Virus record (IMG/VR): IMGVR_UViG_3300042569_002502
Reading direction: 5' to 3' (one strand)
DNA from: a virus
Lineage: Duplodnaviria > Heunggongvirae > Uroviricota > Caudoviricetes
DNA: 48,552 nt
Below, piece by piece: positions 43,609 to 46,371 of this stretch. The notes beneath the pieces are model-generated. The model was not told where the DNA came from. It saw only the letters and a list, made by a program, of their open reading frames with translations, and made no database searches. Position 1 is the stretch's first letter. Each line of letters starts with the position of its first letter. The position numbers and the translations under genes are program-made.

Positions 43609-43812
43609 TTATAAAGGTGCTGTAGTGGTGGTAGTTGTTGTTGGTGCAACTGTTGTAGTAGTGGTAGTTGTTGGATTGCAACATTCATACGCAGGAATTT
43701 CATGCCATTTACCCACTTTAGGAGCTTTTCTTCTTAAAATTAAGCTACCAGCAACGACTCTTCCGCTTCCATCAAAGCGAACAAAGGCTTTTAAGTCTTT
43801 CTTATTACTCAT
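43609..43812 (-). CDS. Small protein with a poly-Thr C-terminus (PT7VAPT7APL)
   Basis: ORF track; Thr codons are mixed, so the tract is not a DNA microsatellite. Confidence 0.75.
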   Translation of the reverse strand: MSNKKDLKAFVRFDGSGRVVAGSLILRRKAPKVGKWHEIPAYECCNPTTTTTTTVAPTTTTTTTAPL

Positions 43813-43824
43813 AATAATCGTTTT

Positions 43825-44841
43825 TTAATAATTAATATTATATTTTTGTTTAATATCGAACAATTTTGTTAAATAATAATGAGTACAAAATTTCTTACTT
43901 TCTTCACTATTAAGTATTTCTTGTAAATAAGGATCTTTTAAAGGATCCGTTCCTGTATGATATTTTCCTTTATAAAAAGCAGGATAACCATTTCCTCTGT
44001 CACTCACTATTCCTGCATTATGAAGAATACCCACTCTATCTAATTTTTGAATTGAATCTGTAGCCCATGCAAAATCCATTTCTGCAATCACCTTGGTTTC
44101 TAATTTATTATACCAAAGATTATATAACACACTCCACATATCTGCACACCAGCTTTGAAATCCTTTAGATTCGCTCTCAAAAAACTGTTTGTTTACATTT
44201 TGTAAATGAAGTCTTATTGATATACAATCTGACAAGACTTTTTCCCAGAATTTACCATCTATATTCTTTAGAAAATATTGAGCTCCTCCAGAATGAGAAT
44301 TATTTTCTTCTGCTATTTGTCTATTAATACCTGCTAAAACCGTAGTTTCTTGTAAAATGTCCTTCTTTTTATATTCTTCTAATTTATCTGGAAGAACATC
44401 TTTTGTCTTACTATCAAAATATGAAGCATTTATGTAGCTATTTGTATTAGATAGATAACAAATATCACCCTCTTTGTAAGCATCTATATTAAAATTCTCT
44501 GTAAAAATAACATCACTATCACAATAAAATATTGCTTTTTCTTTTAACTCTGGATGTTCGTTAAAGTGTCTCATTAAGCAATAGGGCCTAATTATAGGAA
44601 TATAAATTCTAATAAGACTATTTATATTATGTAGATCGTCATAAAAAGCGAACTCAGATTCTGGGTAAAGATCAATCACCTTCTGCCAATTTGTATTTTT
44701 AGATCTATTTTTAGGATTAAAAATAAGCACCGTGGCTTTATCTGAATGTCCTATATTTCTAAGACTTTCCAACCATAAATGTACTTGCCAAACAAAATAA
44801 TTATCACTAGGTTGCACACAGATAAATCTGAGATCCTTCAT
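43825..44841 (-). CDS. GT-A fold glycosyltransferase resembling hydroxyproline-O-arabinosyltransferase / Ser-O-galactosyltransferase (GT95/GT96)
   Basis: SDNYFVWQ, YIPIIRPY, YCDSDVIF (DxD), SWCADMW and GILH line up by eye with HPAT SD.Y..WQ, YVVLNRPW, EPDHI, GWVLEMY and IIHY. Confidence 0.7.
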   Translation of the reverse strand: MKDLRFICVQPSDNYFVWQVHLWLESLRNIGHSDKATVLIFNPKNRSKNTNWQKVIDLYPESEFAFYDDLHNINSLIRIYIPIIRPYCLMRHFNEHPELKEKAIFYCDSDVIFTENFNIDAYKEGDICYLSNTNSYINASYFDSKTKDVLPDKLEEYKKKDILQETTVLAGINRQIAEENNSHSGGAQYFLKNIDGKFWEKVLSDCISIRLHLQNVNKQFFESESKGFQSWCADMWSVLYNLWYNKLETKVIAEMDFAWATDSIQKLDRVGILHNAGIVSDRGNGYPAFYKGKYHTGTDPLKDPYLQEILNSEESKKFCTHYYLTKLFDIKQKYNINY

Positions 44842-44864
44842 ATATGTAGTTATTGGTTTTTTTA

Positions 44865-45008
44865 TTAAGGAGCTAAAGTAGTGGTTGTAGTGGTTGTAGA
44901 GGGTAAGAGCTGTCCTATAGAATAATTCAATCTCTGCATTTGTTTTAAAATTTCATAGAGAAGATTATATTCTGCGCTCTGTCCTATTTGTTTAGAAATT
45001 ATTGCCAT
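44865..45008 (-). CDS. 47-aa protein with a poly-Thr C-terminus, not in the ORF track
   Basis: Hand translation MAIISKQIGQSAEYNLLYEILKQMQRLNYSIGQLLPSTTTTTTTLAP; A-rich start context. Confidence 0.8.
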   Translation of the reverse strand: MAIISKQIGQSAEYNLLYEILKQMQRLNYSIGQLLPSTTTTTTTLAP

Positions 45009-45030
45009 TTTTATATTTTTTTTATTGTTA

Positions 45031-46371
45031 CTATCTACTAACTTCTTCCCAGTCTATAGAAGCAAATGCACCCTCACCACCAGAAACTGTGCTTACAGCC
45101 ATTTCTATTATAATTTCATAAGCTGTTCCTGTTAATCCATTTCGTTCTAGTTGGTTAGCAAATAAAGCTTCTTTTAATATATTTATTGATGGAGATCCTT
45201 GATTTGAGGAATTAACAAACCCACTTGCTAAAATTCTTCCACCTGTTGCACTAGTGCCTGTTAGATTATATTGTACAGCAGAATTAGCACCAGCATCTGT
45301 CCAAGATCCACCAGTAGTTGTTCCACTTGCAACAACTCTCCATTGATAACTTTTACCATTACCAATCCCTAAAAGGGAAATAGCTGTTACAATAACAATA
45401 GCATCAAGTCTTGCAGTTTTAAGTTTAACAGATACAATTGGATAGTAAGTACCAGCAACAGCGAAAGTTCTAGCGGCTGTAATAGATGTGCCAGCAGATT
45501 GTTGTAATCCTGCAAGCTCATAACCACCTTCAGAAATAACCGTAGAACAAATCTGTTTTAATGTACTCACTCCTGAAGTTTCTGTATTATTTTTAATCTC
45601 ATAACGTAATGGTAGTGAGGCAGTTGTAATATATGTACTAGCAATTAGGTTTGCGTGGTTAAATGTGTGACAAACAATAAATTGCCCATTTATTACAAAT
45701 CCCATACGTACAGATCCTACACCTAACCACTCAACGTCCATCCAAAGAATTTGAGCTTTAGTTAGATCTAGTGTTAATCCTGAAGGTCCTGAACCGTTTA
45801 ATTTATCTCCATTCCAATTAGTCTGTAAAATAGGGGTGTTAACTAAAGAACCAGTCACTATGCTTCTTTCTACAAAAGACACAGAACTATTATTTTGTTC
45901 TAAATAAAAACCATTATCATTTCCATAATAACCAATGCGTTGTCTTAATCCAGTTTTAGCTGGACTCATTACAAATGTGTTCAACACAAGAAGGGACTTA
46001 CCTGGTTGATAAGAAAACACTTTTATAGTTTCTCTTACCACTTCAGAGTTTAATGCTGCTGTCACATTTAAATCAACTAATCCTTGATTTTGATTAAATA
46101 CTGCAGTTCCACCAACATTAGTTAGTGTAGACCATAAATTATTATCTGCATATCTATGACTAGAGTCAAAAAGCGTAAAAGGTTCAGACACTCTAAGTCT
46201 ACCAAAAGAATCTGAAGCTACTGACGGTAGTACAACATTTGTAGGATTTGATGGGCTATTGTTATTAGTACAACAGTTTACAGCTTTGCTCACTTTATTC
46301 AAATCATTCCAAATTCCCCAAAGGAGATTGGATTCATTGCTCCAGCCTATCTGTTTACTTGGTATGCTCAC
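45031..46371 (-). CDS. Putative virion structural protein (beta-rich, lectin- or fibre-like)
   Basis: Gly/Ser/Thr/Val-rich; DSFGRLRVSEPFTLFD and YQPGKS…WLGVG motifs; late-module position. Confidence 0.6.
   Translation of the reverse strand: MSIPSKQIGWSNESNLLWGIWNDLNKVSKAVNCCTNNNSPSNPTNVVLPSVASDSFGRLRVSEPFTLFDSSHRYADNNLWSTLTNVGGTAVFNQNQGLVDLNVTAALNSEVVRETIKVFSYQPGKSLLVLNTFVMSPAKTGLRQRIGYYGNDNGFYLEQNNSSVSFVERSIVTGSLVNTPILQTNWNGDKLNGSGPSGLTLDLTKAQILWMDVEWLGVGSVRMGFVINGQFIVCHTFNHANLIASTYITTASLPLRYEIKNNTETSGVSTLKQICSTVISEGGYELAGLQQSAGTSITAARTFAVAGTYYPIVSVKLKTARLDAIVIVTAISLLGIGNGKSYQWRVVASGTTTGGSWTDAGANSAVQYNLTGTSATGGRILASGFVNSSNQGSPSINILKEALFANQLERNGLTGTAYEIIIEMAVSTVSGGEGAFASIDWEEVSR

Follow-up and report, generated by a model that had tools for sequence, protein, structure and literature searches.

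Among the described systems closest to the one reported here are those of the mycobacteriophages Che8, Corndog and Myrna, which encode glycosyltransferases that decorate the structural proteins of their own particles, the glycans being attached to capsid and tail-tube subunits at the C-terminus (Freeman et al. 2023, Cell Host Microbe 31:1216, as cited in PMC12619734 and PMC13313380). The locus that we describe occupies positions 43609-46371 of a 48,552-base stretch of DNA (IMG/VR record IMGVR_UViG_3300042569_002502, hereafter the window; GC content 29.8%) from an uncultured freshwater crAss-like phage, and it encodes a glycosyltransferase of 338 amino acids (aa) between two mini-proteins, p47 and p67, whose tails carry runs of seven threonines (T7). 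To our knowledge, mycobacteriophages are the only tailed phages for which self-glycosylation of the particle has been demonstrated. We find that the enzyme has a GT-A fold and a conserved catalytic motif, that the gene order is syntenic in relatives, that purifying selection acts on the N-terminal modules of the mini-proteins, and that enzyme and T7 tags are statistically paired across unrelated phages. The phage enzyme probably works in the cytoplasm as an O-glycosyltransferase, adding sugars to heptathreonine tags of the phage's appendage proteins before these are assembled; the mini-proteins would be docked stand-alone carriers of the tag.

As far as the cited accounts describe them, the mycobacteriophage systems resemble the Firmicutes phages that carry members of the present enzyme family, where the glycosyltransferase gene stands beside capsid and tail-tube genes with threonine-tailed products; the gene context of mycobacteriophage-type virion glycosylation, a glycosyltransferase gene near structural genes that encode tailed products, is thus found here as well. 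The enzyme family is distinct, however, and no Mycobacterium phage is among the 77 phage records that matched our enzyme by tblastn (see below). Set against the same accounts, the present system also differs in its simple heptathreonine tag, in its hosts, which are of Bacteroidota type or Firmicutes and not Actinobacteria, and in that the crAss-like phages have their tags on appendage proteins and free-standing mini-proteins; glycosylation is, moreover, a prediction here.

The plant and algal hydroxyproline O-arabinosyltransferases (HPAT; GT95, PF23452) and SERGT1 (GT96) glycosylate hydroxy-amino acids in proline/serine-rich disordered peptide repeats. The phage enzyme shares with them the GT-A fold and the DxD motif, and they are its nearest named folds in three structure libraries. 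It differs in having neither an N-terminal anchor nor a secretory-pathway context, and in the presumed acceptor, which is threonine within T7 here, compared with hydroxyproline, or serine next to four hydroxyprolines, in the plant systems.

Host-encoded GtfA and GtfB glycosylate serine-rich-repeat adhesins in the cytoplasm and belong to other enzyme folds and families. In streptococci, disordered regions rich in serine and threonine are also glycosylated outside the cytoplasm (PMC12041528). These bacterial systems and the present one would have in common the dense O-glycosylation of low-complexity Ser/Thr tracts on surface proteins, but theirs are encoded by the host, whereas the enzyme described here is encoded by the phage and would modify virion proteins that are yet to be assembled. 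Giant viruses, too, carry their own glycosyltransferases, which glycosylate capsids or fibrils (reviewed in PMC9614988) and coat the particle independently of host machinery; they differ in their eukaryotic hosts, their large multi-gene glycan pathways and the lack of a heptathreonine tag, and when giant-virus glycosyltransferases in BFVD were compared with the model of our enzyme the template modelling (TM) score was only 0.4-0.5. In the literature we found nothing on phrog_4417 (the family of our enzyme), on poly-Thr phage tags or on crAss-like phage glycosylation, an absence which is not proof.

The glycosyltransferase gene lies between two genes for threonine-tailed mini-proteins

The glycosyltransferase gene (43825-44841, minus strand) is flanked by those of p47 (47 aa, 44865-45008, minus strand) and p67 (67 aa, 43609-43812, minus strand). 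The first mini-protein consists of a helical N-terminal module of about 35 aa followed by a P-S-T7-L-A-P tail and the stop codon; in the second, a module of about 46 aa ending in E-C-C-N is followed by P-T7-VAP-T7-AP-L and the stop codon. A six-frame scan placed the T7 tract of p47 at 44877-44897 and the two tracts of p67, with V-A-P between them, at 43651-43671 and 43621-43641, all on the minus strand. These are the only three runs of at least four threonines in any frame of the whole window, and each is exactly seven residues long. Their codons are mixed (ACA 8, ACT 8, ACC 5) and enriched in ACC relative to seven long genes of the window (ACA 121, ACT 51, ACC 8, ACG 7), meaning that the tracts are not simple DNA-level repeats. 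An earlier, sequence-only reading of this DNA had reported open reading frames (ORFs) of 47, 67 and 338 aa, the last with a DSD motif, and had noted that both tails are of the P-(S)-T7 type with mixed threonine codons; all of this was borne out by the ORF and six-frame scans and by the codon counts. Pfam searches with p47 and p67 returned only sub-threshold noise (DUF5858, HCV_capsid).

Altogether, five minus-strand genes are packed into positions 43176-46371 with intergenic gaps of only 10-23 nucleotides, and from this spacing they are likely to be co-transcribed. The outer two are that of the 446-aa protein (45031-46371, minus strand, GTG start) and that of a 140-aa DUF5856 protein (43176-43598, minus strand; PF19174, E 3.4e-13), the conserved downstream neighbour of the cassette. 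A fusion of p67 to the DUF5856 protein by readthrough or frameshift was considered and rejected, because their reading frames differ and each of the two genes is conserved independently. In a sigma-70 promoter and terminator scan of positions 42500-46700, with a model ill-suited to such phages, promoter-like sites were fewer than in shuffled sequences.

The cassette is conserved in related crAss-like contigs

We compared 81 related loci, 80 of which came from an IMG/VR scan (glycosyltransferase 61-68% identical, many on contigs of 90-120 kb) and one from ENA (L004, 82% identical). The order mini-ORF, glycosyltransferase, mini-ORF, DUF5856 gene recurs in about 80 related crAss-like contigs of some 110 kb: a p47-like ORF is present in 79 of the 81 loci, a p67-like ORF in 80 and the downstream DUF5856 gene in 73. 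Threonine runs of at least five residues are carried by 63 of the p47-like and 65 of the p67-like ORFs. In the p47 family the N-terminal module of about 35 aa is followed by one to three T7-8 units, mostly ending in AAP, VAP or ATP, and in the p67 family the module of about 46 aa that ends in E-C-C-N precedes similar units. Mini forms of the p47-like ORF (at most 70 aa) with threonine runs are found in 60 of the 81 loci. A minority of the loci have the p47 and p67 N-modules at the front of larger proteins (120-440 aa), where the threonine units link variable domains. Runs of 4, 5, 6, 7, 8 and 9 threonines numbered 63, 29, 18, 180, 59 and 12, respectively, with a sharp mode at seven (180/361), which might reflect the recognition unit of the enzyme.

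Comparison with the 82%-identical relative gave 13 synonymous and 3 non-synonymous codon differences in the p47 N-module, and 9 and 1, respectively, in that of p67, as against 75 and 60 in the glycosyltransferase gene. The existence of N-module homologues together with this strong purifying selection shows that the mini-ORFs are real genes under constraint and not debris.

The enzyme is a GT-A glycosyltransferase with HPAT/SERGT-like fold

The 338-aa protein matched the phrog_4417 hidden Markov model (HMM) with E 2.7e-51, its residues 5-305 aligning with profile positions 2-272 of 293. This is an uncharacterised phage protein family, annotated as of unknown function; the enzyme's family is large, with more than 1,400 close relatives, and has 751 clusters at 50% identity. 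In an alignment of 59 diverse homologues the two aspartates of the DxD motif (D108-S-D110) and H274 are invariant, as are Y80, Y136, F257, K291 and Y323. The motifs YFVWQ, RPY, DSDVIF, WCADMW and ILH, picked out by eye in the sequence-only reading, are all present and fall within conserved blocks of this alignment. The AlphaFold (AF2) model is of high quality (predicted local distance difference test, pLDDT, 97; predicted TM score, pTM, 0.94) and has the Rossmann-like GT-A fold with the DxD motif and the downstream conserved histidine. It opens with beta-strand 1 at residue 4 without N-terminal extension and thus leaves no signal peptide or membrane anchor.

Searches against PDB structures gave more than 300 GT-A matches at E≤0.001, of moderate likeness (WbbM, glycogenin and GT6 at TM about 0.45). 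In the other libraries all the structures compared are themselves predicted. Among Swiss-Prot models the top match was the Arabidopsis peptidyl-serine alpha-galactosyltransferase SERGT1 (E 1.7e-10, TM 0.61), eight HPAT proteins were also among the top matches (TM 0.60-0.63), and GT8 proteins ranked below them (TM 0.43-0.47); in the AFDB clusters HPAT-like domain proteins came directly after the family's own members; and in the ESM Atlas, clusters bearing PF23452 were found at TM 0.67-0.71. The aligned plant regions start at residue about 60 in HPAT and 392 in SERGT1. The fold comparison therefore names SERGT1 and HPAT, and not an unrelated GT8 class, as the best named structural match.

The proposed likeness to GT95 and GT96 holds at the level of the fold, where these enzymes are the best named relatives and stand above GT8, but not at the level of sequence. 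Pfam gave no match to the window enzyme at E≤1, including PF23452 and Glyco_transf_8, which by sequence leaves it outside GT95 and GT96 and, given also its structural rank, outside GT8. PDB sequence searches with the enzyme or its family profile likewise gave no meaningful match. Three of the 59 relatives weakly match PF23452 (best E 1.3e-4), the sole Pfam family matched by more than one member. The enzyme thus belongs to a separate phage-borne family by sequence and, as its model places it, to the HPAT/SERGT fold group. The label "mucin-type" given to the cassette in the sequence-only reading can be kept as an analogy only, since the enzyme is not a GT27 mucin-type GalNAc-transferase: Pfam gave no match to a GT27-type catalytic domain (Glycos_transf_2 type) or to the ricin-type lectin domain that usually accompanies it, and no GT27 was among the top fold matches.

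Longer members of the family are fused to GT6, GT2, Gly_transf_sug, methyltransferase or radical-SAM/SPASM domains. Such fusions would fit an enzyme that initiates a glycan on a peptide, other modules then extending or modifying it. Bacterial proteins of HPAT fold are fused to PqqD, a recognition domain of ribosomally synthesized and post-translationally modified peptides (RiPPs), in Pseudomonadota (ESM Atlas clusters), and together with the other fusions this hints at peptide-glycosylating roles beyond phage virions.

Enzyme and tags co-occur in unrelated phages

When the glycosyltransferase was compared by tblastn with 50,697 phage records, 77 cultured-phage records, mostly with Firmicutes hosts, were found to contain distant members of 25-33% identity. 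Five of these distant phages were examined, and threonine tracts lay beside the glycosyltransferase gene in all five. In Chryseobacterium phage MA9V-3, whose enzyme is 33% identical, two proteins encoded directly upstream have long Thr/Ser tracts. In Enterococcus phage phiFL1A the capsid-type protein gp45 and the major tail protein gp50 both end in threonine runs, and the glycosyltransferase, gp51, is the product of the next gene. The capsid and major tail proteins of Lactobacillus phage iLp84 end in T7-S-K, and a 125-aa ORF made of P-T7 units precedes the enzyme, while in Lactobacillus phage Iacchus two upstream ORFs contain T7 units. Enterococcus phage Planchet has a tail protein with a threonine-rich end and an unannotated threonine frame after the capsid gene. 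In phiFL1A, iLp84 and Planchet the glycosyltransferase gene lies within the head and tail modules, beside the threonine-tailed capsid and tail proteins. The expectation that threonine-run ORFs would adjoin the enzyme elsewhere was thus confirmed both in the roughly 80 related loci and in these five cultured phages. By eye, the proteins upstream of the MA9V-3 enzyme resemble the p67 N-module, but an HMM of that module gave no significant match to them, leaving the resemblance unsupported. In Planchet the frame that follows the stop codon of the major capsid gene (L087, 3775-3890) encodes a threonine-rich tail of about 37 residues and then a stop codon; either frameshifting could add this tail to the capsid protein, or the frame could be a small ORF that was missed in annotation.

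The pairing was also examined in the reverse direction, starting from the tag. Viral contigs were picked by a DNA motif for T7-[V/A]-A-P and control records by an arbitrary 14-mer. A family member lay within the fetched flank in 29 of 120 T7-motif loci. Over whole records, phrog_4417 was found in 21 of 49 with the motif and in none of 48 random ones (Fisher's exact p = 6e-8), and among records at least 90% complete the figures were 5/6 and 0/8, respectively. As to absence, five complete gut Crassvirales genomes contained neither an (ACN)6 tract on either strand nor phrog_4417. In a structure prediction for the complex of enzyme and p67 the score was 0.01, and p67 was poorly folded in the model.

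The p47 module is shared with a lectin-like virion-type protein

The gene next to p47 in the cassette encodes the 446-aa protein, which matched phrog_1645, "virion structural protein", with E 3e-135; the sequence-only reading was right in placing the enzyme and tag genes beside a virion-type protein. Its layout comprises a p47-type N-module (residues about 3-32), a linker rich in serine, threonine, asparagine and proline, and a lectin-like beta-sandwich body. An HMM of the p47 N-module matched its N-terminus with E 1.8e-10. The structure model, to be read with caution (pLDDT 69), begins with a helix, continues with a disordered linker and has beta-sandwich domains, and the best folds for these domains are L-type lectins and carbohydrate-binding modules, including phage receptor-binding domains. 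Residues 48-446 share about 62% identity with gp65 of HMO-2011, a SAR116 podophage, and with virion structural proteins of the cyanomyophages S-RIM8, S-RIM50 and S-SRM01. The N-termini of these homologues are quite different, the N-terminal 47 or so residues of the 446-aa protein being lineage-specific. Judging from these alignments, the body looks like a widely exchanged receptor-binding module whose adaptors have been swapped.

In relatives, the p47 N-module heads many proteins with variable C-terminal domains. The module would then be a docking adaptor common to several appendage proteins, and p47 an adaptor with a tag and nothing else; as it shares the module with a lectin-like virion protein, p47 probably plugs into the same virion socket. 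An HMM of the p67 N-module matched no other protein of the window.

Other proteins bear the tags as well. A complete relative that has the enzyme (108 kb, with terminal repeats) encodes eight proteins with threonine tracts, among them the crAss muzzle (PF25731) and a collagen-like tail fibre. The proposal of dedicated poly-Thr tags therefore stands insofar as the two mini-proteins carry them, but has to be widened, since the muzzle, the collagen-like fibre and other proteins carry them too. In another relative (G049) a threonine-tailed protein of 392 aa, a candidate for the major capsid protein, had no match in a PDB sequence search.

Proposed mechanism and alternative explanations

In the scheme that we favour, a soluble, cytoplasmic, metal-dependent GT-A enzyme would take a sugar from a nucleotide sugar and place it on the threonine hydroxyls of P-T7-x-A-P tags on the phage's own proteins. 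The p47 protein would dock in the same virion socket as the lectin-like protein and display a short glycosylated tail, and p67, with its own module, would do likewise. Since the muzzle, the collagen-like fibre and other proteins have the tags too, as linkers or tails, the enzyme would coat the appendages of the particle with dense O-glycans. The product of a nearby gene, a GT2 glycosyltransferase of 225 aa encoded 3.5 kb from the cassette at the end of the plus-strand arm (39378-40055, plus strand; PF00535, E 3.5e-10) and likewise in the 82%-identical relative, might, speculatively, extend the glycan. Transfer to a peptide acceptor is indicated indirectly, by the co-occurrence of enzyme and tag genes. 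That threonine accepts the sugar, which sugar it is, that the mini-proteins belong to the virion, and what the benefit is, be it shielding, stability or adhesion, are all matters of inference.

Several points weigh against this scheme. Threonine-rich tracts are commonly plain linkers, and sugars on the tag proteins are a prediction from genes and models. The window enzyme reaches no Pfam glycosyltransferase model and is only 12-15% identical to the plant enzymes. The virion location of p47 and p67 is deduced from a shared module of 30 residues, and the "virion structural" label of the 446-aa protein is the annotation of its homologues. The roughly 80 syntenic loci represent one lineage and amount to only a few independent observations, so that independent support comes only from the five cultured phages and the motif-sampled records. 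Among the latter, 28 of the 49 with the T7 motif, most of them fragments, had no enzyme, and one record (G047, 94.9 kb, 96% complete) had dense threonine tracts and no phrog_4417. In the 6.5 kb around its tracts no glycosyltransferase was confirmed, and a GT-B-like ORF noticed there by eye had no Pfam match; its tags are either served by another enzyme or unmodified. The tracts of G047 (L136) are in two adjacent proteins packed with T5-T8 units.

Three other explanations were weighed. The tags may be glycosylated while p47 and p67 are not virion proteins but soluble products, such as glycopeptides that are released or stay in the cell, decoys, assembly factors, or RiPP-like peptides in which the N-modules act as leaders or as elements that the enzyme recognizes. 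The fusions of HPAT-fold proteins to PqqD in Pseudomonadota and of one family member to radical-SAM/SPASM speak for it, as do the confinement of the p67 N-module to a single protein of the window and the fact that both mini-proteins are placed in particles by deduction. We nevertheless consider it unlikely: the p47 N-module heads a lectin-like virion-type protein and proteins with variable C-termini, a pattern that points to a docking adaptor and not to a leader peptide; the capsid and tail-tube proteins themselves bear the tags in other lineages; and Pfam and phrog matches revealed no peptidase or exporter in the cassette. It is quite unlikely, in our view, that the threonine runs are ordinary linkers or spacers and that the enzyme acts on host envelope polysaccharide or lipopolysaccharide, for superinfection exclusion or receptor masking, or on phage DNA. 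Such an enzyme would hardly be gained and lost jointly with the runs across Bacteroidota and Firmicutes phages, whose hosts' envelopes are unrelated, and it would not be expected to lie inside the head and tail module of Firmicutes phages, to be without membrane anchor or to have peptide O-glycosyltransferases as its nearest named folds; most of the tags, furthermore, are terminal tails with nothing to link. That phage glycosyltransferases are best known for modifying DNA and the host surface, as a review sets out, is nevertheless in its favour, together with the top PDB matches, which are GT-A enzymes acting on polysaccharides or small acceptors (WbbM, GT6, GT8), and with the use of threonine runs as inter-domain linkers in long p67-like proteins.

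Finally, the mini-ORFs could be imagined as decaying, functionless stubs of truncated fibre genes, given that some relatives have full-length proteins (120-440 aa) that begin with these N-modules. This we regard as highly improbable, because the mini forms are the majority state (60/81 for p47) across contigs whose glycosyltransferases are 61-68% identical, purifying selection on the N-modules is strong (13:3 and 9:1), and the T7 tails, whose codons are mixed, have been preserved whole. Beyond the favoured scheme of tag glycosylation before assembly, a broader generalization can be offered as a tentative possibility, namely that P-T7-x-A-P is a portable glyco-tag read by one HPAT/SERGT-like family in phages of Bacteroidota and Firmicutes, and that in crAss-like phages it has been pared down to free-standing mini-proteins of adaptor and tag, which share sockets with lectin-like receptor-binding proteins, giving an exchangeable glycan/lectin surface. 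If so, enzyme and tag would also make up a ready-made orthogonal system for cytoplasmic O-glycosylation.

Implications

What is new here is the freshwater crAss-like lineage, the free-standing adaptor-plus-tag mini-proteins, the seven-residue mode and the paired absence of enzyme and tracts within Crassvirales. If the favoured scheme is true, a second, unrelated enzyme family would make sugar-coated virions common, in Firmicutes phages as well as in an abundant freshwater crAss-like lineage, and the enzyme together with T7 tags would be a simple predictor of modified phage proteins. It would then bear on phage stability and adsorption, on immune recognition in phage therapy and on the interpretation of cryo-electron microscopy and proteomic data, and the small enzyme-tag pair could be used as a tool for glyco-tagging in the cytoplasm. 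The structural kinship with plant extensin-glycosylating enzymes raises the question of the evolutionary origin of this fold group.

Source genome and further features of the window

The plus-strand arm of the window encodes DNA polymerase A, helicases, RIIA/RIIB, ribonucleotide reductase, a UvsX-type recombinase, ThyX and PhoH besides the GT2 enzyme. Among cultured phages, the best matches of the DNA polymerase are Crassvirales (crAss001, IAS virus) at about 29% identity, and from this kinship the host would belong to the Bacteroidota. The stretch 43609-46371 has nearly verbatim counterparts in metagenomes from lakes or fresh water (20 runs, of 2016, 2023 and 2024), and some of these runs are possibly the source of the DNA; a near-identical stretch in runs from 2016 to 2024 indicates that the phage persists in lakes.

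Small lysine-rich proteins with similar M-x-T/N-I/V-K-K leaders are encoded in series at 40253-42571 and 46476-46598. By eye, gp63 of HMO-2011, which lies beside the gp65 homologue of the 446-aa protein, resembles them. In the plus-strand arm, the ORF of the UvsX/RecA-type recombinase (618 aa, 34863-36719) gave HNH-endonuclease matches at residues about 264-310, between the recombinase parts, which suggests an intein or a homing element inserted in this gene.

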